Sequence record: PQ738613
Source: Escherichia phage PhiKM
DNA: 34,674 nucleotides
Reading direction: 5' to 3' (one strand)
Part shown: positions 8,458-28,781 of the stretch, in pieces
Layout: each line of letters starts with the position of its first letter
Position numbering within the stretch: the stretch's first letter is position 1
Program-made: the position numbers and the translations under genes
The notes under the pieces: generated by a model
What the model was told of the DNA's origin: nothing
Database searches by the model: none
What the model saw: the letters and a program-made list of their open reading frames with translations, nothing else

Positions 8458-8708
8458 TGAAAGAATACCGCTATTCCGGCCCGGCCAGCGGCGTCACGCT
8501 GTCGGACGGAACCGAAATCCTGCTCTGGCCGGGGAAGACGGTTTCCCTGCCGGAGGAGCATGACTACGTGAAGGTACTGGTGGCGCTGAAACATCTGACG
8601 CCGGTACCTGAAGAGACTAAACCCGCCGGCACACCGGCTGTGCAGTCACCAAAGCGCAGAAGCAGCAGTGACAGCGAAGTGAAAACGGAGGACACCCATG
8701 GCAGCTAA
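8457..8708 (+). CDS. small hypothetical phage protein (Mu gp38 position)
   Basis: ATG at 8457 preceded by GAGGA; track start 8454 is GTG; ends overlapping sheath start. Confidence 0.5.
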   Translation: MKEYRYSGPASGVTLSDGTEILLWPGKTVSLPEEHDYVKVLVALKHLTPVPEETKPAGTPAVQSPKRRSSSDSEVKTEDTHGS

Positions 8709-10125
8709 CTATCTGCATGGTCCCGAAACCATTGAGGTGGAAAACGGTGCCCGCCCGGTTAAAACGGTGAAATCTGCCGTTATTGGCCTGATTGGTACCG
8801 CCCCGATGGGGGATGTCAATACGCTGGTACAGTGCCTGTCTGAGAAAGACGCAGCGGCATTTGGCAGCCAGTTCACCGGCTTTACCATTCCGCAGGCGCT
8901 GGATGCGATTTATGACCATGGTGCAGGCACCGTTCTGGTCATTAACGTCCTCGACCCGGCGAAACATAAAACGGCGATCGAGGATGAGGTGGTTACCTTT
9001 GACAAATCGACAGGGCAGGCCAGACTGGCGCATCCGGTTGTCGCTAATGTGGTGGTGAAAAACAGTGAAGGCAGCACCACCCACACGGCGAACACGGACT
9101 ACCGTGTTGATGCGCAGGCGGGTGTGCTCACGAACCTGGGCAAGGCTATTGAGGCCGGTGGCAGCGTGAAGGTGAGCTATGAGTACGCGGACCCGTCGAA
9201 GGTGACTGCGGCGGACATCATCGGCGGGGTGAACAGCGCCGGAAACCGAACCGGCATGAAGCTGCTTAACGACAGCTTCAACCTGTACGGCTATTTCGCC
9301 AAAATTCTGATTGCGCCGGTGTTCTGCACCCAGAAGAGTGTCGCAGTTGAGCTTATCGCCATGGCAGAGAAGCTGGGCGCGGTAACCTACATTGATGCGC
9401 CTGTCGGTACCACCTTTGCACAGGCTCTGGCAGGTCGTGGCCCGGAAGGCACCATCAACTTCAATACCAGCTCCGACCGCGTCCGTCTGTGCTATCCGCA
9501 TGTGAAGGTATATGACCCGGTGACAAACACAGAGCGTCTGGAGCCGCTCAGCCAGCGTGCAGCAGGTCTGCGTGCCAGAGTCGATCTGGACAAGGGCTAC
9601 TGGTGGTCATCCTCCAATCAGGAGATTCTGGGGATCACCGGCGTGGAGCGCCAGCTGTCCGCGATGATTGATGACCCGCAGAGTGAGGTGAACCTGCTTA
9701 ACGAACAGGGGATCACCACGGTATTCAGCAGTTACGGCAGCGGCCTTCGTCTGTGGGGTAACCGGACGGCAGCATGGCCAACGGTCACCCATATGCGTAA
9801 CTTTGAGAACGTTCGCCGCACCGGTGATGTGATCAACGAGTCCATTCGTTATTTCAGCCAGCAGTACATCGACATGCCGATTACTCAGGCGCTGATTGAT
9901 GCACTGACGGAGTCGGTCAACGCCTACGGTCGCAAAATGACTGGTGATGGTGCGGTACTGGGCTTCCGTTGCTGGTTTGATCCGGCCCGCAATCCGGAGA
10001 CGGAGCTGGCCGCCGGGCACCTGTTGCTGAGCTACAAATATACGCCACCACCGCCGCTGGAGCGACTGACGTTTGAGACTGAGATCACCTCGGAATACCT
10101 GTTAACCCTGAAAGGGGGCAACTGA
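8698..10125 (+). CDS. tail sheath protein (Mu L / P2 FI-like)
   Basis: 475-aa ORF, SD GGAGG before ATG 8698; size, position before tube gene, and sheath-like sequence. Confidence 0.85.
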   Translation: MAANYLHGPETIEVENGARPVKTVKSAVIGLIGTAPMGDVNTLVQCLSEKDAAAFGSQFTGFTIPQALDAIYDHGAGTVLVINVLDPAKHKTAIEDEVVTFDKSTGQARLAHPVVANVVVKNSEGSTTHTANTDYRVDAQAGVLTNLGKAIEAGGSVKVSYEYADPSKVTAADIIGGVNSAGNRTGMKLLNDSFNLYGYFAKILIAPVFCTQKSVAVELIAMAEKLGAVTYIDAPVGTTFAQALAGRGPEGTINFNTSSDRVRLCYPHVKVYDPVTNTERLEPLSQRAAGLRARVDLDKGYWWSSSNQEILGITGVERQLSAMIDDPQSEVNLLNEQGITTVFSSYGSGLRLWGNRTAAWPTVTHMRNFENVRRTGDVINESIRYFSQQYIDMPITQALIDALTESVNAYGRKMTGDGAVLGFRCWFDPARNPETELAAGHLLLSYKYTPPPPLERLTFETEITSEYLLTLKGGN

Positions 10126-10646
10126 TGTCAAAGATTGAGATAAACCGCATCACGAATGCCAACATCTATCTGGATGGTACTAACCTGCTGGGACGGGCTG
10201 AGGAAGTTAAACTCCCCGATGTCTCCATGATTATGCAGGAACACAAGGCGCTGGGGATGGTGGGTAAGGTGGAACTCCCGGCTGGTTTTGACAAACTGGA
10301 AGGCGAAATCAAATGGAACAGCTTTTACCGCGATGCGATGCTGTCTGCCGCGAACCCGTACAGGTCGCTGGCACTGCAGTGTCGTTCCAGCGTCCAGCGC
10401 TACAGCTCGCAGGGGCTGATTGACGAAATCCCGCTGGTCACCTTCCTGACGATTATGTTCAAGAAGAACCCGCTGGGGACGTTCAAACAGCACGAGAACG
10501 CCGAGTTCTCCAGTAGCTTCACCTGCACGTATATCAGACAGGTACTGGATGGTGAAGAGCTGCTGCAACTGGACTATCTGGCCAACATCTTCCGGGTCGG
10601 CGGTGTTGATCAACTGACTGACTACCGTATCAATATCGGGGGCTGA
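10125..10646 (+). CDS. tail tube protein (Mu M / P2 FII-like)
   Basis: 173-aa ORF immediately after sheath with ATGA overlap. Confidence 0.75.
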   Translation: MSKIEINRITNANIYLDGTNLLGRAEEVKLPDVSMIMQEHKALGMVGKVELPAGFDKLEGEIKWNSFYRDAMLSAANPYRSLALQCRSSVQRYSSQGLIDEIPLVTFLTIMFKKNPLGTFKQHENAEFSSSFTCTYIRQVLDGEELLQLDYLANIFRVGGVDQLTDYRINIGG

Positions 10647-10936: not shown

Positions 10937-10968
10937 AGGGGCTCCGGCCCCTTCTTCTTAATCTCCTT
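10937..10968 (+). terminator. rho-independent terminator-like hairpin
   Basis: AGGGGC (10937-10942) tccg GCCCCT (10947-10952) followed by TCTTCTTAATCTCCTTT. Confidence 0.45.
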
Positions 10969-11027: not shown

Positions 11028-11363
11028 ATGTCACAGACCCCATCCGATACTTTTAAATTGTCTTATCCCTTCACCACTGCTGCAGGCACCAGAATTGAGC
11101 TGGTTGAACTGAAACGCCTGACGGTAAAAGACCTGAAGCAGGTGCGCAAAATCAGCAAAAACCCGGCAGACTGGGACGAACCGCTGATTGCCCGCAGTAC
11201 TGGTCTTCTCCCGGAGGATCTCGACAATATGGATCTGGCTGATTACCTGCAGTTACAGAAACGATTTCAGCTCATCACGGGGATGGGTGAGAGCAACCAG
11301 GGCGCTGACGCAGGCGCAGGGGCTGCTGGCGAGATGGTTCCGGTTTCAGCCGGGGGAGATTGA
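11028..11363 (+). CDS. tail assembly chaperone (lambda G / P2 E analogue), frame-0 product
   Basis: 111-aa ORF with SD CAGGAG 8 nt before ATG, located between tube and tape measure genes; overlapped by a second ORF in the +1 frame. Confidence 0.65.
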   Translation: MSQTPSDTFKLSYPFTTAAGTRIELVELKRLTVKDLKQVRKISKNPADWDEPLIARSTGLLPEDLDNMDLADYLQLQKRFQLITGMGESNQGADAGAGAAGEMVPVSAGGD

Positions 11364-11445
11364 TGCCCTCGATACTGACGATCTGGAGATGTGGCTGGAG
11401 CAGGCTGAAGAGCAAATCAAAAGCGAGTACGGCGACAAATCATAG
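11028..11445 (+). CDS. candidate frameshift-extended tail assembly chaperone (frame 0 then +1 frame near 11352-11356)
   Basis: Frame +1 ORF (11188..11445) overlaps 3-prime end of frame-0 ORF; run of five G at 11352-11356 sits 6 nt before the frame-0 stop; extension encodes an acidic helical tail (EIDALDTDDLEMWLEQAEEQIKSEYGDKS). Confidence 0.45.
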
Positions 11446-11451
11446 TACAGA

Positions 11452-11480
11452 CAGCCGCCAGTAGCGGCTGTTCTGCGTTA
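11452..11480 (+). terminator. weak hairpin after extended chaperone ORF
   Basis: CAGCCGC (11452-11458) cagta GCGGCTG (11464-11470) followed by TTCTGCGTTA. Confidence 0.3.
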
Positions 11481-11520: not shown

Positions 11521-14386
11521 ATGTCGGGACAGTTTTCAGTCGGCGTTGTTATCGGCGGGATGATTGGCAGCACATTCCGTTCTGCAATGAGCGGTACCCG
11601 CCGTGCGCTTGATTCCCTGAGCGATACCTCACGCCGCCTGCAGGAACGTCAGAACGCTTTAACCCGTGCAACAGAACGTTATGGTCAACTGGGTTCTTCC
11701 CGGATGCAGCATCTCAACAGCGAGCTGCTGCGGGTAAGCCGCACCATGGAGCAAATTGAGCGCCAGCAGCGCCGTCTGTCAGCGGCATCCGCTACCAGTG
11801 ATGCGCTGAAAGCTAACCGCATGGCGCTGTATGGTCAGGGGATTGAAGCGTATGGCATGGCACAGACTGTTTATCATACGGTTTCCCCTGCCGTTCAGCA
11901 GTCCATGTCTTTTCAGGACAAAATGATTGATATGTCGATCACCGCAAAATATGACAATAAAACGCGGGATGCACTTGCCGGACAGATAAAAGGCTGGGCG
12001 CTTAAATACAATCAGTATCAGGATGAGCTGCAGGAGGCGATGGGTTCACTCATCAGCGACAATATTGATAATGTGTCAGATATCGGTTTTCTGATGCCGG
12101 ATATTGCCCGCGCGGCAACGGCAACACGCACGTCTGCTCAGGACTGGGCAAAAGTGGCCGCAGTCTGGCAAAACTCCCTGAAAGGCGCGGCCAGAGATTT
12201 TGGTGCCGTTCAGAATATTATGGCTTATGCCGGTGACCAGGGGTCATTTGAAATCCCGGATCAGGTCAAGTGGATGCAGTCCCTGGCCCCAATGATGGCG
12301 GGTATTGCCAGTGGAAAAGAGGCTGTTGCTGAAATCGGGGCCAGTCTCCAGATAGCAAAAATCGGTGCAGGTTCCACCGACGAAGCAGCCAATAATTTTA
12401 AAAACTTTCTTACCAAAATTTTTGCCCGCGATACTCAGAAACAGTTTGCTGATCTGGGTATTGATTTGCAGGGATCTATTGCGAGTTATAAAGCTGCGGG
12501 GATCTCTCCGATTGAAGGGATGTTGAGTGTTATAGAACGTTACCTCAATGCCAAAAGCCCCGAAGCGCTGGCCGGCTTCAAATCAGCCATGAAAATAAAG
12601 AATGATACGGCAAGAGATGAGGCACTTCAGGCTCTGGCGAAAAACTTTGGTCTGGGCGATATGTTCGCGGATATGCAGGTCATGGCATTTATCCGCCCGA
12701 TGCTGGCCAACATGGACAGATATCGAGAGATCCGTGCCGGTGCTCTCAGGGCTGCGGATAACGATTTGCTTGCCAGTGCTTATGATCAGCGGCTGAAATC
12801 TCCCCTTGAAGCCACTAAAACACTTATGGTCAGCAGTCGCGATCTGGCAATTACGCTGGGCGATCAATTAGCTCCATCTTTTATTTCTCTGACTCAGGAC
12901 TTGCTCCCACTCATTCAGGGGACAAAACACTGGGTGGCGACTCACCCGCAATTTGTCAGTGGGGCTTTTAAGCTCATCAGTGCGCTCCTTGCGATTAAGA
13001 TAGCGACTGTTGGTCTCAAACTGGGGCTGAATCTCCTTATTTCCCCCTTTGTGAACGTCTGGAAAACTGCTGTTTTACTCCGGACCAACTGGCATCGACT
13101 GACTACCGCACTCGGAGAAGGTGGCAAATTACGCTGGCTTGTCACTGGATTCAGCCGACTGACCAGCGGAGGACTGAAACTCAGCAAAGTTCTGGCGGGC
13201 AGCCTCGTTCGCGGTTTTATGAGCGCTGCACGTGCCGTTCTCTGGATTGGGCGAGCGCTGATGATGAATCCCATCGGTCTCGTTATCACCGCTGTCGCGG
13301 CAGCAGCTTACCTTATCTACCGCAACTGGGGGGCAGTCAGTGGCTGGTTTAAACAGCGCTGGGCTGACATTCAGGAAGCCTTTAACGGCGGTATCGCGGG
13401 AACTGGTAAGCTGCTGATTAACTGGTCGCCGGCANNNNNNNNNNNNNNNNNNNNNNNNNNNNNNNNNNNNNNNNNNNNNNNNNNNNNNNNNNNNNNNNNN
13501 NNNNNNNNNNNNNNNNNNNNNNNNNNNNNNNNNNTGGGCTGACATTCAGGAAGCCTTTAACGGCGGTATCGCGGGAACTGGTAAGCTGCTGATTAACTGG
13601 TCGCCGGCAGGTCTGCTCTATAAAGCCTTTGCAGCTGCGCTGAAATATCTTGGTGTTGATCTGCCGGCAAAGTTTACCGACTTCGGTGGCCATCTTGTCG
13701 ATGGTCTGATTAACGGTATCAAAAACAAATGGGAGTCGCTCAAATCCAGTGTAACCGGAATGGGCGACAGCATCAGTGGCTGGTTCAGCGAAAAGCTGGG
13801 CATTCATTCGCCGAGCCGCGTGTTTATGGGCTTTGGTGACAATATCGCGCAGGGGGCCGCCATTGGCCTGCAGCGGACCACTCCGCTTGCAGCTCTGGCC
13901 GGGCAGCGAATGGCCAGTGAACTGCTCCCCAGAATGCCCGTGAGCATTCAGGGGCCAGAAATACGGGATAACACTTCAGGTGTTCGCTTCAGTATGCCGT
14001 TGCCCGATATCAATGGGTTTATGTCGTCTGCTAAAAATGCGATCGGAGCCGTAATCAATAGTTTGTCTTCCATGCCCGCTATTCCGCTCTCCACCCGGGC
14101 ATCGATTTTACCAGGGCAACGTCTGGCAAATGAGATGACACCGGATGTTCCCCGTATCCCCTCGCCTGAAATCCTGGCTGCCGGATATTCAGGCCGTGGT
14201 GCAGCTGCAACCGGCGGTGGAACGTCTGGTGGTATCCAGGTCAGCTTTAATCCTCAGTTTTTCCTCAATGGCAGGGAAACCACAGCGCCTGCAGGACTGA
14301 CTGGTGCCCTGAATATGAGTCTGCATGAGCTGGAAAAAATGCTGGAGCGTCTGCTGGCTCAGAAACAACGTAAGGAGTACCGCTGA
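11521..14386 (+). CDS. tail tape measure protein (interrupted in this assembly by a 100-N gap and a 75-bp duplicated flank)
   Basis: Frame open 11521 to gap and from gap to 14386; peptide before the gap (WADIQEAFNGGIAGTGKLLINWSPA) is repeated verbatim after it; collapsing gap plus duplicate restores one continuous ORF of about 896 aa. Confidence 0.8.
13360..13609. repeat. 75-bp exact direct duplication flanking the gap (13360-13434 and 13535-13609), most likely overlapping contig ends
   Basis: Sequence tgggctgacattcaggaagcctttaacggcggtatcgcgggaactggtaagctgctgattaactggtcgccggca occurs immediately before and after the N run. Confidence 0.9.
13435..13534. other. assembly gap (run of 100 N)
   Basis: Directly visible; exactly 100 N, the conventional unknown-size scaffold gap. 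Confidence 0.98.
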
Positions 14387-21758: not shown

Positions 21759-21978
21759 TCTGAATACCTCCCCATTCGATATGAATATTACGGGCAGCAA
21801 TGACAGGGTCGTTATTCCACCATGCACCTGACATGTATTTTTCAACCTGTTCGCGTCCGGCAATAACACCAATTGTGATCCCCGGCCTGACGTTCTTAAA
21901 AAAGGCGCGGGCAAAAAGGTATCTGGCAGATATTCGGCAGGCTTTTAATTTCCGGCTTTTACCTGATAGCGTAATCAT
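21748..21978 (-). CDS. hypothetical protein
   Basis: 76-aa ORF, SD GGAGG 4 nt upstream; ATGA overlap with upstream gene. Confidence 0.4.
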   Translation of the reverse strand: MITLSGKSRKLKACRISARYLFARAFFKNVRPGITIGVIAGREQVEKYMSGAWWNNDPVIAARNIHIEWGGIQNDY

Positions 21979-22658
21979 CTGGCCTCCAGTTTCTGTTGTT
22001 CCTGCCCACTGACCGGGCGGTGCAGTCTGACGTTCTGCCCTTCACGAAACCCCGCATAGCGCGAGGCGTCGCCATTGCGGCTTCTTCCCGGTTTACGCGC
22101 CCTGGTGGTTTGCGTCTGCGGGTATTTATGTTCCAGCCACTGCTGCATCAGTTCACGCTCATCATCGGTCAGGGCAAAGGACTGTATTTCACTGATAACG
22201 GCCAGCACCCAGCCTTCGGCAAACTGGTCTCCACGGCTGGTGCGGGTGGCGGTTTTTATTCTTTTGTTCTGTGCACTGATATACTGCTGACGCGCCTTTT
22301 TCAGCTGACGGGCCAGCACTTCCCAGGTGTATGCAGCCAGTGCCGCACGTTCCCGGTTGCCGTAGAACCCCACAGACGGATGCGTGCCGGGGTGAATGAT
22401 GGAGTTAACACCAAATACCTCGCGGATGATGTTCATCAGGCCCAGCATGTAGCGCGGTGGACGGAGACTGCCTGTCGGCCAGTAGTGACTGATGGTTTCA
22501 TCAATATCACTCATAGCAATGTCGGAATGTGTGATGCCGTGAACATCCATCAGTTTACGGGCTCGGCGCAGTGCCAGAGCGGCCTCGTGCGGGTTGCCGG
22601 ATGCGGCCAGCGCCAGCAACTTTTTCAGTTTCTCAATGTGTTTATTCTGGTCTGTCAT
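21975..22658 (-). CDS. hypothetical early-region protein
   Basis: Start at 22658 (ATGA overlap with upstream gene, SD GGAG) preferred over track start 22694. Confidence 0.5.
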   Translation of the reverse strand: MTDQNKHIEKLKKLLALAASGNPHEAALALRRARKLMDVHGITHSDIAMSDIDETISHYWPTGSLRPPRYMLGLMNIIREVFGVNSIIHPGTHPSVGFYGNRERAALAAYTWEVLARQLKKARQQYISAQNKRIKTATRTSRGDQFAEGWVLAVISEIQSFALTDDERELMQQWLEHKYPQTQTTRARKPGRSRNGDASRYAGFREGQNVRLHRPVSGQEQQKLEAR

Positions 22659-22870
22659 TGTTCTGTATCTCCGGTATTTTTCTGCCGTTTCCATGCCCGG
22701 ACAGCGTCGGACAGCTCTTTCAGGCTGTATGCTGCTTTAAGCTTTTCCCATAACCACTGTGTTGTTATGTGCATCAGCAGGGCAGCCAGGGCTGCCCCCG
22801 CACTGAGGCATGTCGCCAGGCCAGTAAGAATCAGTGTCCATGCGGTGATTTCCCTGAGTATGTCAGCCAT
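22655..22870 (-). CDS. small membrane protein (hypothetical)
   Basis: 71-aa ORF with SD GGGAGG; one predicted hydrophobic helix (WTLILTGLATCLSAGAALAALL). Confidence 0.5.
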   Translation of the reverse strand: MADILREITAWTLILTGLATCLSAGAALAALLMHITTQWLWEKLKAAYSLKELSDAVRAWKRQKNTGDTEQ

Positions 22871-22884
22871 TGAATGCCTCCCGG

Positions 22885-23181
22885 TTACTCGTTCGTGTAA
22901 ATCACGCCCAGTCGTGCAGCCAGACGTTCCAGTTTTTTCTGTTTGTGGAAGTCAATCAGCCGGTCCATCCCCTGAAGGCGCAGTTGCTCTGTCATGATTT
23001 CCACGTCTGCCAGCTCTGCCGCGAGGTCACTTTCGCTGCCCTGTCCGTTCAGGTTGCGGGCGGCACTGGCCGCCAGTTCAGCGGCCTCTTCTGCCAGTTT
23101 CAGGGCCTGTGCGTCCGGCCCGAAACGCTGCAGGGCCAGACGGTAGAGGGCGGTGCGGGTGAGTTCGGTGTTTCGTGTCAT
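22885..23181 (-). CDS. hypothetical protein, possibly MazG-like NTP pyrophosphohydrolase fold
   Basis: 98-aa ORF, SD GAGGG; two Glu-rich helices (LAEEAAELAASA ... AAELADVEIMTEQL) resembling MazG-type EExxE motifs; tentative. Confidence 0.4.
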   Translation of the reverse strand: MTRNTELTRTALYRLALQRFGPDAQALKLAEEAAELAASAARNLNGQGSESDLAAELADVEIMTEQLRLQGMDRLIDFHKQKKLERLAARLGVIYTNE

Positions 23182-23190
23182 GCCGCGCCC

Positions 23191-23463
23191 TCAGTGCTTC
23201 CGGCTGACGGTGATGTGCAGGCCGCCTTCTGCAGTGGTTTCCATCCGGTACGGCACCTCATGCTCTGCCGTGTGGGTGAGTGTGTTCATCAGTACCTGCA
23301 GGGCAGCCTCCTTTCCGTTGGTCGCCACAATGGCCTGTGTGGCCATGCTGATTAGCGCCGTCAGGACGTGCTTCACATCGGTGAGGTCGCGGCATTCACA
23401 CTCGTTGACATAGTGTTCAACAAGGGTTCGGGTGCGCTGTCGTGCTTCCTGTGGGGTAATCAT
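23191..23463 (-). CDS. hypothetical protein
   Basis: 90-aa ORF with SD GGGAGGA; coupled to neighbours. Confidence 0.45.
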   Translation of the reverse strand: MITPQEARQRTRTLVEHYVNECECRDLTDVKHVLTALISMATQAIVATNGKEAALQVLMNTLTHTAEHEVPYRMETTAEGGLHITVSRKH

Positions 23464-23654
23464 TGCGAGTCCTCCCTGTCAGGGCGGGAGAATTCCATGA
23501 CGGGCACGTCTGCCGAAAAATGCTGGCTGCAGTACGGGCAGACCAGGGTGACGCGTACCGCAGGGATGTGGTATTTACCGGACATCACGGCGATGGCGCT
23601 GTGAAAACGCAGGGCTGTTATATCCCTCTCGCACTGAATACATTTAAATATCAT
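23460..23654 (-). CDS. zinc-ribbon protein (CxxC...CxxC), possible regulator
   Basis: 64-aa ORF with SD GAGGAG; Cys at positions 5, 8, 39, 42. Confidence 0.5.
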   Translation of the reverse strand: MIFKCIQCERDITALRFHSAIAVMSGKYHIPAVRVTLVCPYCSQHFSADVPVMEFSRPDREDSQ

Positions 23655-23751
23655 GATTTAATTCTCCTCTGTTTCCGGCGTGCAGAAGCCCGCGGCGCTG
23701 ACGTCGGAATAAAAAAGAAAATGTTTTTATTAAATAATTAACGTGGTGTGT

Positions 23752-24282
23752 TTACTGCACATCCTGCTCAAAAGGAATTATTGAAAAATCCTCAATGTCG
23801 CTTTTAATGGAAATACCGGGAATATTTTTCACGGCCTCTTTTTCATTCAGGATAGCGTCTTTATTTATTTCCTCTTTTACACGAATAAAGCGCTCAAGCC
23901 CCAGACGTCTCAGTAATTCAATAACATTATCCGCCCCACGGATACTGACTGATGGCGGACGGTTTCGCCACTGCACCTCGCCGGTGGTGAGGTTAGCGAA
24001 CTTCACCTTCCCGTTGCCGGTCAGTTCATCACGGTGTGCCTCACACCATGTCTGAATACCGGACTGCAGTTCGGCCATGCGTTTTTTCAGGCTCTCGGTG
24101 AGCGGGGCATAACGTGCGGTGATATCGCCAATGGCGTCATTCATTTCTGTTTCAGCCCTGACCAGTTCACGTTGTGCGTCACCGAGTAGTCTGATTCCCT
24201 CAATGACCTCTTCACGTGTCCCCGGCACCCAGAGTGCTGCTGCGGCCTTGATACGTTTTGCACCTTTTGTACTTTTTGCCAT
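23752..24282 (-). CDS. gam: host-nuclease inhibitor protein Gam (Mu Gam family)
   Basis: 176-aa product with extensive similarity to Mu Gam as remembered (NRPPSVSIRG, IEDFSIIPFEQ). Confidence 0.9.
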   Translation of the reverse strand: MAKSTKGAKRIKAAAALWVPGTREEVIEGIRLLGDAQRELVRAETEMNDAIGDITARYAPLTESLKKRMAELQSGIQTWCEAHRDELTGNGKVKFANLTTGEVQWRNRPPSVSIRGADNVIELLRRLGLERFIRVKEEINKDAILNEKEAVKNIPGISIKSDIEDFSIIPFEQDVQ

Positions 24283-24309
24283 TTTTTATGATTTCTCCAG
24301 TTGTGCTGA

Positions 24310-24579
24310 TTACCACAAAGATTCCGGCCACACGACGCGACAGCCGTGCAGTTCGAAAACGCCCTGACGGAAATATCCCCTGTGGTCATGTCCGGTATAC
24401 AGATAACAGGCCTTTCCCTGCTCAAGCATGCGCATGCAATGCGCACTCCGGGAAACGCGGATGACAGGTTTGTTACCCCTGATGGTGATGCTTTGTACAT
24501 CCGTGTTCGTCGCCTTAAGCGCCATAATGGCTGACTGCACTTTGCTGATTTGCTGGTTGATACCTGTGGTGGATTTCAT
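24310..24579 (-). CDS. hypothetical protein
   Basis: 89-aa ORF, SD AAAGGGG; lies between transposition ATPase and gam. Confidence 0.5.
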   Translation of the reverse strand: MKSTTGINQQISKVQSAIMALKATNTDVQSITIRGNKPVIRVSRSAHCMRMLEQGKACYLYTGHDHRGYFRQGVFELHGCRVVWPESLW

Positions 24580-24581
24580 TA

Positions 24582-25748
24582 TTAAACCCCTTTGACAACG
24601 TCAGCGTTGACCTGTGGAACCCCGATTTCAGCGGCCAGATTCATGGCGGCTATTACCAGGTTACTGACGGCCAGCGGATACAGCAGGCTGACCATATTTT
24701 TACGGTGACTTCCCGGATTGCTCAGGCGGGCACGTATGGCATCCACTGCACCGGCGTCCATAATGTCCGTCAGCTGTTTACCGGCCCGTTGCAGTTTGAA
24801 CGTCAGAAATTCTTCAAGGTTATTGTCCAGAGGCAGAAGTTCGACCACCTCACAGCGCTGAACGACTTCACGGACTTCCATATTGCGTTCAGACAGTTTT
24901 GTCGCCAGTTCCGGCTGGCCAATCAGCACGATGGACAGCAGTTTTTTGAAACCGGACTCCAGCTCAAAAAAGCGTTTGAGGTGTTTCAGTGTCGGAATGG
25001 GCAGACTGTGGGCCTCCTCAATCACCAGAACGTGGCTGAACCCCGCCTGGCTGCTGTCTTTCAGGACGCGATGCAACTGGCGAAAACGGGCGTCCTGACT
25101 GCGTCTGATGCTTTCCAGTGGTGCGATGGTACTGATAATGGCTTCGGCAATAGCTGCTGCCTTCAGGGTTTTCCCTTTCACATCGTTGTCTTCCATAGCG
25201 ATGATGTATGGCTCGATAACAATTACCGGCGCATTCTCGCGGTTGATACGTTCAGTCAGGTCGCGGCGCAGCGTGGATTTACCCGCACCGGACTCACCGA
25301 TGACGGCCATAAACCCACCATGACGGGCTGTCTGGTACAGCGCCTCACGCACGTAGCGAATGTCCGGGGTGGTGAACACATCATCAGAACCCTGCATGGC
25401 TTCGTCGGCGAACGGGTCACGGAAAAGACCAAACGCTTTTTTGGTTGCTGGAAATAACACCTGTTTTTTGAGTAACATATTCTCTTCCTCACTGAGGCTC
25501 GTTTTATCTGTGGTACCCGCTGTACGGGGCGTGGCCGCGCCCTGTACAGCATCAAAACTCTTCGTTGTATCAATCCCCTGACTTTCCAGCCAGGACGCAA
25601 GACGCCGGCGCACTTCTCCGGGGCTGGTGCGGGGCCACGCGTTATGATTCACAATCTGGGCCAGCGTGGCCTCAGAAACATCGACAGCTCTCGCCACCAC
25701 CGCCTGTGGAATACGGGCCTCTTTCAGTTGCTGCTTCAGTACCAGCAT
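24582..25748 (-). CDS. transposition ATPase (AAA+, TniB/ExeA/MuB-like B subunit)
   Basis: Walker A GESGAGKST and Walker B VLVIEEAH; ATG at 25748 preceded by GAGGAGGG; track start 25787 is a GTG whose N-terminal residues would be encoded by the SD itself. Confidence 0.8.
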   Translation of the reverse strand: MLVLKQQLKEARIPQAVVARAVDVSEATLAQIVNHNAWPRTSPGEVRRRLASWLESQGIDTTKSFDAVQGAATPRTAGTTDKTSLSEEENMLLKKQVLFPATKKAFGLFRDPFADEAMQGSDDVFTTPDIRYVREALYQTARHGGFMAVIGESGAGKSTLRRDLTERINRENAPVIVIEPYIIAMEDNDVKGKTLKAAAIAEAIISTIAPLESIRRSQDARFRQLHRVLKDSSQAGFSHVLVIEEAHSLPIPTLKHLKRFFELESGFKKLLSIVLIGQPELATKLSERNMEVREVVQRCEVVELLPLDNNLEEFLTFKLQRAGKQLTDIMDAGAVDAIRARLSNPGSHRKNMVSLLYPLAVSNLVIAAMNLAAEIGVPQVNADVVKGV

Positions 25749-25758
25749 GTTTCCCTCC

Positions 25759-27528
25759 TCAGTTGCCGTTAACAATGCTGATAACACTGCTGCGGGCCGG
25801 TGTGGTCAGCGTGGCCATGACTTCATCCAGTGCGGCTTCCGGTACGCCGTCCGGGTACTGTGCCGTTAACTGGCGGTAATGTTCCGGCGTCCAGGTAAGG
25901 CCGTCGGCGCTGAACTTATCGCGCAGGGCTTTCGCGGCCTCCACATGAGTCATGGGACGTTGTTCAGTGCGCGGCCCGCGTACGTCAGAGGCCTGACCAC
26001 GCTTCGGCATATAGGCCGGAAGTGTGGTGTCGTCGATATGTTTATACGGGTCAAGCCGCCCGCCGAACGGCAGCGCCTTCGCCTTGCGTGCGGCGGCTGC
26101 ATCTGCGGCGTTGTCTGTACCGGTAACCAGCGCTTCGGTTTCTTTTGCCGCCATCTGTGCCGGGGTTTCCGGCAGGGCTTTGTAACTTTCGCCAAATACC
26201 GCCGCGCCTTCAGCAAAGCCAAACTCGTTCTTTCTGACCTCTTCGACCAGGAAGAACGTCTCGTGGCCGTCCTCACCGGTCAGAACCACCTGTGCCACAT
26301 CGCTGCGCCATGGGTTACGGGTAATCATCAGTTTTTCACCAACCAGTACGCCCGGTACCGTTGATACGTCAAATTCAGTGCCCCGGAACGAGACACGAAG
26401 TTTTGGCGTGACTTTGCGGAGTTCTGGTGCCGCCACAGCCAGTTCACGACATACCTCAACGGAAGGCGCTTTTTTCAGCTGCTCAGCAGTAATCTTCAGC
26501 CAGATATCCGTGCGGGTTTTACCGTGGCGGCTGTGAACAGCCGTGGCGTTAAAGTGGCTGCGCCATTTCGCGGCCAGCGCGTTGAGTTCTTCCAGACTGT
26601 GAACCGGCCGGAACTTCAGACCCGGCTCCAGCTTGCGTTCGATAATGTCACGCGCCTTTTCCACCTGTCCGGTGGCGCGGGCGTTATGCGGCTTGTGCGC
26701 TATCAGGTCGATGCCCAGTGAGCGGCACATGTTTTTCGTCATACCCGCGGTGTTTGCCGAGCCGGGGTCGAGATAGAGTATTTTCGGCACGCCGTGCAGC
26801 ACGTCTGCGCCGCCACGCTCCTGCATGGCGTTGATAAGCACAGAACACAGGTTCTCACCTGATTCCGCGCCCGTCACATACTCAACGTAAATCCAGCCGC
26901 TGGCATGGTCGGTAATCTCGTAACTCCACACGCGGTCACTGGCGATACGGGCAAGGTTAGCGGGCTTGTTCTTGTAGAACTTCGCGCTGTCCATCACCTG
27001 CAGCCCTTTATGTCCATTGCTCAGGTAGTAAAGCGTGCAGAGTGAGGCGTCAATCTGCCAGACATGATTGGGATGCAGACTGGCCACTTCGGTATGTGGT
27101 GCAGGGGCATCCAGTTGTTCCGGGTGCAGGCCATAGTTACGCAGAGCACGGCTGATGGCATCTTCAGACAACGGGAAAAACTCACTGGTGGTTTCATCTG
27201 TTCTGCCTGCGGTGATAAAGCCGTTAGCCCGCAGGGTTTCCACTGCATCTGCGATGGAATAGAGACGCTTACCGTTCTTGCGGGTGGCCTCACGCAGTGT
27301 GGCAGATATCAGCGCGGCTTCGTCGCGGGTCAGGGCGCTGCGCCCGGCATCGGCGCGTTTTTTGCGTTTATCAGTCACAGATACCTCCTTCAGCCTGCGC
27401 AGCAGAGTGGCGCGGGACATGCCAAGTTCAGCACAGGCAGCGTCGTATATTGCACCGCGTTTACCATGCCCCGCGTCACGTGCCGCGCGGGCTGTTTCAA
27501 CCAGTTTTTCAGTCAGTGCCGGGGTCAT
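25759..27528 (-). CDS. DDE-type transposase (integrase-core, Mu A functional analogue)
   Basis: 589-aa ORF immediately upstream of the ATPase; N-terminal HTH-like region and rve-like core (HVWQIDAS ... LYLDPGSANT). Confidence 0.8.
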   Translation of the reverse strand: MTPALTEKLVETARAARDAGHGKRGAIYDAACAELGMSRATLLRRLKEVSVTDKRKKRADAGRSALTRDEAALISATLREATRKNGKRLYSIADAVETLRANGFITAGRTDETTSEFFPLSEDAISRALRNYGLHPEQLDAPAPHTEVASLHPNHVWQIDASLCTLYYLSNGHKGLQVMDSAKFYKNKPANLARIASDRVWSYEITDHASGWIYVEYVTGAESGENLCSVLINAMQERGGADVLHGVPKILYLDPGSANTAGMTKNMCRSLGIDLIAHKPHNARATGQVEKARDIIERKLEPGLKFRPVHSLEELNALAAKWRSHFNATAVHSRHGKTRTDIWLKITAEQLKKAPSVEVCRELAVAAPELRKVTPKLRVSFRGTEFDVSTVPGVLVGEKLMITRNPWRSDVAQVVLTGEDGHETFFLVEEVRKNEFGFAEGAAVFGESYKALPETPAQMAAKETEALVTGTDNAADAAAARKAKALPFGGRLDPYKHIDDTTLPAYMPKRGQASDVRGPRTEQRPMTHVEAAKALRDKFSADGLTWTPEHYRQLTAQYPDGVPEAALDEVMATLTTPARSSVISIVNGN

Positions 27529-27543
27529 AGCTTGTCTTCCCTG

Positions 27544-27861
27544 TTATCCGATTCTGGCGGCAATTTTTCTGGCGAGGTCGCACAGTGTTTCGCCATCGCA
27601 GGTTTTCACCACGGTATTTACCGGTTGCGGTGCAACTACCGGGCGTAATGCTGACTGATTCTGCAGACGTCTTATCTGCTGCATCAGCATCACCTCCATC
27701 GTCAGTACAAACGGGTGCGTCTCCTGTGCGGGTACGCAGATTTCACCGGAAGGGGTCACCACGCGGAAACCCTGCACCATCTCCGGCAGCAGATTACACA
27801 GTGCGTGCCCCAGTGCCTCCGGGCTGTCCATCAGGGTATTTTGTGTGTTATTCGTATTCAT
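27544..27861 (-). CDS. hypothetical protein
   Basis: 105-aa ORF, SD GGAGG; TAATG overlap with upstream gene. Confidence 0.45.
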   Translation of the reverse strand: MNTNNTQNTLMDSPEALGHALCNLLPEMVQGFRVVTPSGEICVPAQETHPFVLTMEVMLMQQIRRLQNQSALRPVVAPQPVNTVVKTCDGETLCDLARKIAARIG

Positions 27862-28781
27862 TACTGCATATCCTCCGGTCGGTTGATTTCAGGTTCCGGT
27901 TCGGTCAGCCAGGCGGGGGCATCGTTACCCGATGGAGCGGCCTCAAGGTCAAACGTCTCACGTAATGCATGAACACTGCGTTCAATCTGGCAGACCAGAC
28001 CGGCCATGAAATCTCTGGGGGTATCGATCATGTTTTTGGTGCAGTATTCACACAGGGTCTCAAAAACACTGGACAGCCGGACGGCGATAGCCGATTCGGC
28101 CTCAACCGCTAATGCCGTCACTTCCGCCCGCAATTTTTTCAGTTCTTCGTCTGGCGGCGGAGGTTGCAGGCGCGATTTCTTCTCCAGTTTTGTGGCCAGT
28201 TCGTTGATTTTTTCGTCCTTTCCGGCAAGCACCTGTTGCTGAGCTGCGTTGGTTTCGCGCGCTTCACGCAGGGCGGCCTTCAGTTCGCGGCTGGTCATGC
28301 GATCAATATCATCAAGCGTTGCACCGGCGACGGTTCCACCATCAGCTAATGCGTCGAGTTCTTCGTCATCCAGAACCATCAGTTCATATAACTTGGTTTT
28401 TCCCAAAACGCTCAGCGCTGAGCGTTTTGGCTGTTCATCTCCATTGCCGAGAAATTTCACGCTGGCCTGCATCATGCGACGAGCTACCTGTGGTGCTAAT
28501 CCGAGGTCGTTTTCCAGAATATTTGTGAAATCACCATGCGGTTCATTTTCTTTTAAGATGATCAGCCGCTTACCCGCTTCCAACATAGATTCAGCACTCT
28601 GCGCCATATAAAAACGTGCTTCGTGAACGATGCGTTCACGTTCATAAGGCAGTCCATCACCAAACTGCTGCATGATCTCCATGCGATGCTGTGTCATGGC
28701 ATTCAGGCTGACGTTGAGATCATCCGACAGCGGTACATCGGCGTTCAGTTCAGTGTTAATCGGTGATTTGGTACGTCCCAT
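27861..28781 (-). CDS. hypothetical protein (coiled-coil, acidic; DUF3102-like?)
   Basis: 306-aa ORF with strong SD AAGGAG 6 nt upstream of ATG 28781. Confidence 0.5.
   Translation of the reverse strand: MGRTKSPINTELNADVPLSDDLNVSLNAMTQHRMEIMQQFGDGLPYERERIVHEARFYMAQSAESMLEAGKRLIILKENEPHGDFTNILENDLGLAPQVARRMMQASVKFLGNGDEQPKRSALSVLGKTKLYELMVLDDEELDALADGGTVAGATLDDIDRMTSRELKAALREARETNAAQQQVLAGKDEKINELATKLEKKSRLQPPPPDEELKKLRAEVTALAVEAESAIAVRLSSVFETLCEYCTKNMIDTPRDFMAGLVCQIERSVHALRETFDLEAAPSGNDAPAWLTEPEPEINRPEDMQ

Follow-up and report, generated by a model that had tools for sequence, protein, structure and literature searches.

Sequence comparison indicates that the tail assembly chaperone of a Mu-like prophage is very probably made in a second, longer form by programmed +1 ribosomal frameshifting. 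The shift is likely to take place at the heptamer CGA_UUU_C, which lies about 87 bases upstream of a G5 run that an earlier note on this DNA had put forward as the site. The G5 run itself reads as plain +1 coding sequence for Pro-Gly-Glu and not as a shift site. The DNA analyzed, termed the window, is the whole stretch of 34,674 nucleotides from Escherichia phage PhiKM (sequence record PQ738613), and its features are collected in Table 1. From comparison with relatives and known systems, we infer that the shift occurs, which way it goes at the codon level, how efficient it is, and what the proteins do. The relatives were drawn from phage records, E. coli genomes, a set with one genome per species (L010-L039), and viral contigs (L041-L200). 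They comprise 108 unique loci of the +1 type from Gamma- and Betaproteobacteria and 13 unique loci of the -1 type.

Table 1. Features of the window in and around the chaperone locus
Feature	Position	Strand	Remarks and evidence
Sheath gene	8698-10125		Precedes the tube gene
Tail tube gene	10125-10646	+	Upstream context; Phage_tube, E = 2.9e-53
Small ORF, 93 aa	10649-10930		Between tube and chaperone; DUF7739; phrog_1239, E = 4.7e-48
Frame-0 tail assembly chaperone gene, gpE-like, 111 aa	11028-11363	+	ORF; Pfam Phage_TAC_7
Proposed +1 shift site CGA_UUU_C	11262-11268	+	Arg79, Phe80, and first base of Gln81
+1-frame extension, gpE′-like	11269-11445	+	58 codons and TAG; predicted to be read after the shift
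G5 run	11352-11356	+	+1-frame codons CCG_GGG_GAG (Pro-Gly-Glu)
Stem-loop between E′ stop and tape-measure start	11448-11475	+	MFE -18.1 kcal/mol, z = -3.5
Tape-measure gene	11521-14386	+	Downstream context; ORFs; PGAP name in identical record
Transposition/early module	21975-28781	-	rve transposase 25759-27528; AAA+ MuB-like 24582-25787; DUF3102; DUF7168/DUF2786

The window is a Mu-like transposable prophage joined with a P2-type contractile tail module. It is called Mu-like and transposable because of its transposition and early module with the rve transposase and the MuB-like ATPase; Portal_Mu and Mu_F complete the list of Mu-like modules found. Copies of the chaperone region that are at least 99% identical occur in 559 of 5,426 complete E. 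coli genomes (about 1 in 10), and many E. coli chromosomes carry the region at 100% identity. In the identical E. coli record that was inspected, PGAP annotates only the 111-aa protein, named “phage tail assembly protein,” and the long chaperone form is unannotated; the tape-measure gene is named “phage tail tape measure protein.” In the window, the tape-measure gene is broken by a masked run of 100 N (13435-13534), and PGAP flags it as an incomplete pseudogene in the identical record, so the ability of this prophage to make tails is uncertain.

The position of the chaperone ORF between the tube and tape-measure genes, as described in the earlier note, is confirmed by the ORFs and by Pfam. Residues 8-81 of the frame-0 product match Phage_TAC_7 with 74.8 bits (E = 5.5e-21), and this N-terminal domain (PF10109), which is a feature of the P2 family, scores 74.8-79.2 bits against a cut-off of 25. 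The gene order tube, chaperone, tape measure is that of the G/GT type, with the DUF7739 ORF intercalated. The chaperone gene is overlapped by a second ORF (11188-11445; 85 codons, counted from a TTG) in the frame that is reached by +1 or -2. This ORF lacks conserved initiation signals of its own, as is found in G/GT-type loci. Gene order and overlapping ORF together bear out the G/GT-type arrangement that had been proposed. The -1 frame, which had been read as low-complexity sequence, contains stop codons.

The DUF7739 ORF is also present in KP12-like relatives; in L005, L006, and L009, no DUF7739 gene is annotated, and the chaperone directly follows the tube gene in the annotation. A terminator-like GC hairpin with a T-rich tail (AGGGGCTCCGGCCCCT TCTTCTT, 10937-10952) separates the DUF7739 ORF from the chaperone gene and thus falls inside the expected single late tail operon.

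On comparative grounds, the +1-frame extension is real, probably homologous to P2 gpE′, and conserved in 108 unique relatives. Phage_P2_GpE (PF06528) matches residues 100-132 of the predicted long product with 18.4 bits (E = 0.0015), which is below the gathering score of 23 bits; this weak match covers profile positions 4-36 of 37, and the domain order is as in P2. BLASTP of the extension against P2 E′ gives E = 0.03 with 30% identity over 27 aa. Residues 87-138 of the predicted long product match phrog_8286, a family of stand-alone E′ ORF calls, with E = 3.4e-33, and an NCBIfam scan returned no hit. PGAP names the second ORF “GpE family phage tail protein” in the relatives L004 and L005. The extension is conserved in Enterobacterales, Betaproteobacteria, and Pseudomonas relatives, and the +1 frame stays open for 25-34 codons beyond the frame-0 stop in nearly all of them. 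The consensus of the +1-frame peptide is LLARWFRFQP[SG]E[IL][DN]..L......W......QIK.E, in which LLARWFRFQP, encoded upstream of the G5 run, is the most conserved stretch. The extension that the earlier note had seen in the +1 frame holds up; it is conserved and helical and has a gpE′-like match.

Such an overlapping ORF could also encode a separate small protein, translated from an internal start in the +1 frame with no frameshift involved. This would agree with the separate ORFs of 41-45 aa that PGAP calls in L004 and L005, with the stand-alone calls of which phrog_8286 is built, and with an ATG that is found 15 nt 5′ of the LLARW motif in 33 unique sequences. Internal initiation of E′ is nevertheless quite improbable because no start codon is conserved. 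A survey of start codons and Shine-Dalgarno-like motifs in 102 unique relatives found no E′ start codon with a conserved position; 6 of the sequences have no E′ start codon at all, and 86 have none that bears a Shine-Dalgarno-like motif. At the site of the ATG in KP12-like relatives, the window carries ACG. Selection in the +1 frame moreover extends 5′ of the relatives’ ATGs, and the homologous E′ of P2 is made only as an E+E′ fusion according to its record annotation.

Stop codons in the relatives limit the putative frameshift to a region of about 45 nt. The upstream bound is a +1-frame TGA three codons 5′ of the Arg-Phe (CGA) pair, which is found in a betaproteobacterial group and in Pseudomonas phage Komp_PAO1_1. 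Downstream, the region is closed by a frame-0 stop 33 nt past TTT (Phe80) in L058 and L059 (98% identity to the window). A second downstream bound is the +1-frame Trp codon TGG six codons past TTT, which shows 0 changes, and the frame-0 residues that overlap this invariant TGG vary (Met/Leu/Val and Gly/Ala/Val). Overlaps of just 44 nt (L172) and 56 nt (L144) still include TTT_C. The stop in L058 and L059 arose by a change from CAG to TAG, which cuts the frame-0 chaperone to 90 aa. In the +1 frame, the same change is synonymous (ACC to ACT). The 90-aa form makes up the cluster P0014, which is present on 914 contigs, so that this short variant is common.

The frame under selection was followed through substitutions that are synonymous in one frame but not in the other, which were counted on a minimum spanning tree of 79 unique sequences. 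Over the 60 codons that precede TTT, the ratio of changes synonymous in frame 0 to changes synonymous in +1 is 671:157, and in +1 codons 1-6 after TTT it is 35:23. It then turns to 53:155 in +1 codons 7-22 and to 4:65 in +1 codons 23-30, which form the LLARWFRFQP part. These counts indicate that selection changes frame near CGA_TTT_C.

Within the stop-bounded region, CGA_TTT_C is the only conserved slippery element. TTT is present in all 69 unique sequences of the window’s clade and CGA in 67 of them (L025 and L113 have CGG in its place), and the next codon is CAG, CAA, CTG, or CAT. When changes at third codon positions were counted by the Fitch method on a neighbor-joining tree of the 79 unique sequences, the third position of TTT showed 0 changes versus 4-13 at other invariant two-fold residues, and that of CGA showed 2 versus 12-19 at other invariant four-fold residues. 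The synonymous sites of CGA_TTT_C are thus conserved beyond coding need, and the conservation of Phe80 may be partly structural. In the window’s long ORFs, 3.6% of Arg codons are CGA. A codon-usage estimate for GC-rich betaproteobacterial loci was set aside as unreliable, as long spurious ORFs inflate the counts. The heptamer CGATTTC itself is not rare in the window (6 copies versus 4.8 expected).

Across the wider family, an in-phase TTT_Y in the overlap is found in 108 of 108 unique +1-type loci and in 0 of 13 unique -1-type loci. The latter, which are Pasteurellaceae-like, carry G_GGA_AAG in 13 of 13 cases. An in-phase canonical -1 heptamer of the type X_XXY_YYZ is absent in 99 of the 108 unique +1-type loci. 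Distant +1-type relatives (about 40% identical) keep the same Phe in the contexts TGG_TTT_CGY, TCC_TTT_CGC, ACT_TTT_CGC, TTT_TTT_CGY, and GTG_TTT_CGG. The carriers of the -1-type E′ are L178-L196, L199, and L039 (Volucribacter), in which G_GGA_AAG often occurs as A_AAG_GGA_AAG; these -1-type relatives have no Phe at the position used by the +1 clades.

The +1 shift could instead occur at lineage-specific sites a few codons 3′ of TTT_C, for example at ACG_GGG_A (11277-11283), where the G4 run at 11279-11282 does fall within the allowed region. The mixed substitutions in +1 codons 1-6 would be in line with this reading, which is still unlikely: the clades share no conserved element in the stretch from TTT to the Trp codon, and the re-pairing from GGG to GGA is poor. 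It would also leave unexplained both the synonymous invariance of CGA_TTT_C and the perfect association of TTT_Y with the +1 arrangement. A second G4 run, GCA_GGG_GCT at 11319-11322, was rejected as a site; at this place, relatives read GAT_GGC_ACT or AAT_GGC_GCT, and the +1 frame is under selection further upstream as well. The same applies to a stop-assisted +1 shift at GTT_TAG as found in KP12-like sequences, as the window and many other sequences have no stop at this position, and the product would skip LLARWF.

The G5 run was the earlier note’s choice, and its position was given correctly; it lies 4 nt before the first base of the frame-0 TGA. It is not the only homopolymeric candidate, as the overlap also contains TTT_C (11265-11268) and the two G4 runs. 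Frame 0 reads GCC_GGG_GGA_GAT_TGA across the run, and GGGGG is less frequent in the window than expected from shuffles (41 copies versus 88). A shift at this run, by +1 from GGG or by -2 from GGA, would give the junction ...VSAG(G)-EIDALD... and can draw on the ability of tRNA-Gly to re-pair both ways on G5, as well as on the verified -2 shift of phage Mu on a G5 run (PMC5009743; Mu record annotation). It is nonetheless highly improbable. The run is rejected as the shift site because it is missing in relatives, because stops lie upstream of it, because the changes upstream of it are silent in +1, and because the GpE match would be lost. At its position, most relatives have GCC_GAG_TGA, GCC_CAG_TGA, or TGT_GGA, in contrast to GCC_GGG_GGA in the window. 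The check for conservation in relatives that the earlier note had suggested thus finds the extension kept and the run absent from most. More than 30 unique sequences have the position of the run 3′ of the frame-0 stop, including 31 in which this stop lies 75 nt past TTT (TAG in Klebsiella phage KP12). Just upstream of the run, the differences between the window and KP12 (AGA/AGG, TTC/TTT, CGG/AGA) are all silent in +1 and none is silent in frame 0, and purifying selection in the +1 frame reaches about 85 nt upstream of the run. A product joined at the run, with the junction ...VSAG-EIDALD... that had been predicted, lacks LLARWFRFQP and loses the Phage_P2_GpE match, which the product of the upstream shift keeps. 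The codon phase is also unlike that in Mu (GCC_GGG_GGA versus CGG_GGG_CGA, the latter as read in the Mu record, which annotates a -2 shift).

Database proteins with the exact G5 junction do exist (P0003-P0005, P0007-P0009; L119), and a loss of 1 nt yields an open fusion. In these entries, a 1-base loss at or near G5 joins frame 0 to the last 29 residues of E′; the same losses shift the normal E′ frame out of register, and they recur in several assemblies. The fusions sit, however, beside joins at other G runs and beside multiply frameshifted sequences, mostly on short Logan/ENA contigs. Fusions at varied G runs together with multiple frame errors form a pattern that suggests homopolymer indel errors or mutants, and the G5-joined fusions probably stem from sequencing errors in homopolymers or from defective prophages or mutants. 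Natural in-frame fusions were also considered as a guide to the junction. Their joins are scattered over G runs with none at TTT, and several are multiply frame-errored, so they are uninformative on the shift site. The apparent fusion in L026 (Apirhabdus) is due to the loss of 1 nt five codons before CGA and thus probably reflects an error or a pseudogene.

A change of frame by slippage of the RNA polymerase, and not of the ribosome, has next to no probability. Transcriptional slippage needs a long A or T run, and the longest runs in the overlap are only T3 and G5. Polymerase slippage is known as an alternative route elsewhere (PMC5009743), and nothing specific points to it here.

In the proposed model for CGA_UUU_C, most ribosomes would translate frame 0 up to the TGA at 11361-11363, yielding the 111-aa chaperone as the abundant product. 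A minority of ribosomes would shift by +1 at CGA_UUU_C and yield the E+E′ product of 138 aa, which would consist of residues 1-80 followed by SSSRGWVRATRALTQAQGLLARWFRFQPGEIDALDTDDLEMWLEQAEEQIKSEYGDKS. Two routes would lead to this identical 138-aa protein. In the first, the peptidyl-tRNA-Phe (anticodon GAA) would slip from UUU to the overlapping UUC, and CGA, then in the E site, would ease the slip. Such a +1 slip improves the pairing, because the GAA anticodon of tRNA-Phe fits UUC better than UUU. In the second, CGA would be in the P site, and Phe-tRNA would bind the +1-frame UUC directly. CGA is read by an inosine-containing tRNA-Arg via a weak I:A wobble. For a shift at CGA_UUU_C, the predicted junction is ...LQKRF-SSSRGW..., which would be contained in the Lys-C peptide RFSSSRGWVRATRALTQAQGLLARWFRFQPGEIDALDTDDLEMWLEQAEEQIK. 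If the parallel with lambda gpG/gpGT and P2 gpE/gpE+E′ holds, the N-terminal domain common to both forms would coat the tape-measure protein, the rare extension would recruit tube subunits, and a fixed low ratio of long to short product would be what tail assembly requires.

The frame-0 codon after UUU is one of the abundant codons CAG, CAA, and CUG in the window’s clade, and CGC, CGT, or CGG are found only in sister clades. A slow-to-decode frame-0 A-site codon of the CGN type is thus absent from the window’s clade, and the common A-site codon leaves no obvious pause element there unless CGA supplies one. Neither a Shine-Dalgarno-like nor an RNA-structure stimulator was found to be conserved or significant (z = -1.4 for the fold of 11255-11330 and z = +0.3 for that of 11340-11400). 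The lack of a conserved stimulator is in keeping with the low efficiency that chaperones of this class are expected to show.

Downstream of the extension, a stem-loop precedes the tape-measure gene. The earlier note had located this hairpin after the extended ORF but had called it weak, which does not agree with its folding energy and z-score (Table 1). Its stem arms are ACAGACAGCCGC/GCGGCTGTTCTG, and the same stem with different loops is found in KP12 and L004. It was not called terminator-like, and as no T run follows the stem-loop, it is not a canonical terminator.

The comparison points to an annotation gap, in which the long form is missing from the inspected E. coli record and the second ORF is elsewhere called a separate small gene. 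It also carries a caution for method, in that the most conspicuous homopolymer next to a stop codon need not be the conserved site. A single chaperone family appears to reach its extension by four routes, namely -1 on T6G, -1 on G_GGA_AAG, -2 on G5 (Mu), and +1 on UUU_C. The family thus offers a compact natural series for studying how a frameshift can change its direction with the product ratio maintained.

Frameshifts of the lambda G/GT type in tail chaperones are conserved across tailed phages; they are mostly -1, with -2 in Mu and +1 in some (PMC5009743), and a SEA-PHAGES genome survey lists about 350 annotated “forward” shifts (PMC10274946). Because some phages use +1 and so many forward shifts are annotated, the +1 direction in a tail chaperone is not new in itself. 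A literature search turned up no report of a +1 shift on UUU_C in the Phage_TAC_7/gpE-type chaperone family, although an earlier description is possible. In function, the window’s locus would fall into the class of G/GT and E/E+E′. With lambda gpG/gpGT, the window shares the gene position and, as we infer, the logic of two products at a fixed ratio.

P2 gpE/gpE+E′ resembles the window in the order of Phage_TAC_7 and a putative Phage_P2_GpE domain and in the location between tube and tape measure. P2 shifts at Phe84, and in the alignment the Phe codon at which the window would shift is no more than a few residues away. The Phe lies 11 residues after a shared Asp-Leu in both proteins, and it precedes the start of the GpE profile by 20 residues in P2 and by 17 in the window. 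The two differ in that P2 shifts by -1 on a T6G run (GGT_TTT_TTG), whereas the window has its extension in the +1 frame with CGA_UUU_C as the proposed site, and sequence identity is low. A T6G or T7G run of the P2 type for a -1 shift is absent from the window, which has T3 followed by C.

With Mu, the window has in common the Mu-like head and transposition modules, an extension in the +1/-2 frame, and a G5 run near the frame-0 stop. The -2 frameshift of Mu gp41 at C_GGG_GGC_GA was reportedly verified by Xu, Hendrix and Duda in 2004. The Mu chaperone, however, matches Gp41_Mu (PF23746) with 119.5 bits, and the window protein gives no hit to this family. The G5 run of the window is in another codon phase, is unconserved, and lies inside the conserved E′ domain. 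The Mu-like relatives in Pasteurellaceae and lambda differ in another way, as they use a tandem -1 slip on G_GGA_AAG, and no such heptamer is conserved in the window’s clade.

The in-phase UUU followed by a pyrimidine that characterizes UUU_Y sites is present in the proposed site. [quoted passage not shown] The window shares with the E. coli argI error site, Yersinia YopN-TyeA, influenza A PA-X, and the amalgaviruses an in-phase UUU followed by C, on which tRNA-Phe can re-pair with UUC. Sister clades of the window’s chaperone family carry exactly the UUU_CGN of PA-X and the amalgaviruses. The window’s clade is different in that the Arg codon CGA stands before UUU and not after it, and that a common codon comes next in frame 0. 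If the proposed site is correct, it would add a phage example to the UUU_C and UUU_CGN motifs of influenza PA-X and the amalgaviruses, and it would provide a simple bacterial system to ask whether a preceding CGA stimulates +1 shifting.

A bolder reading, which is tentative and on the doubtful side, holds that CGA_UUU_C is a distinct bacterial +1 signal that works with CGA in the P site and without slippage of the peptidyl-tRNA. Such a signal would have been kept across Mu-like prophages of Gamma- and Betaproteobacteria and exchanged within one chaperone family with UUU_CGN, T6G (-1), G_GGA_AAG (-1), and the G5 run of Mu (-2). The closest parallel to this reading is the yeast Ty3 +1 site GCG_AGU_U, at which no peptidyl-tRNA slippage takes place and at which CGA is among the few codons able to replace GCG (PMC5009743). 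Ty3 is a eukaryotic system, and the frame-0 A-site codon UUU of the window, unlike that of Ty3, is not rare. In this reading, both sites combine a P-site codon that is read via an inosine purine-purine wobble with a +1 A-site codon that is read by an efficient tRNA.
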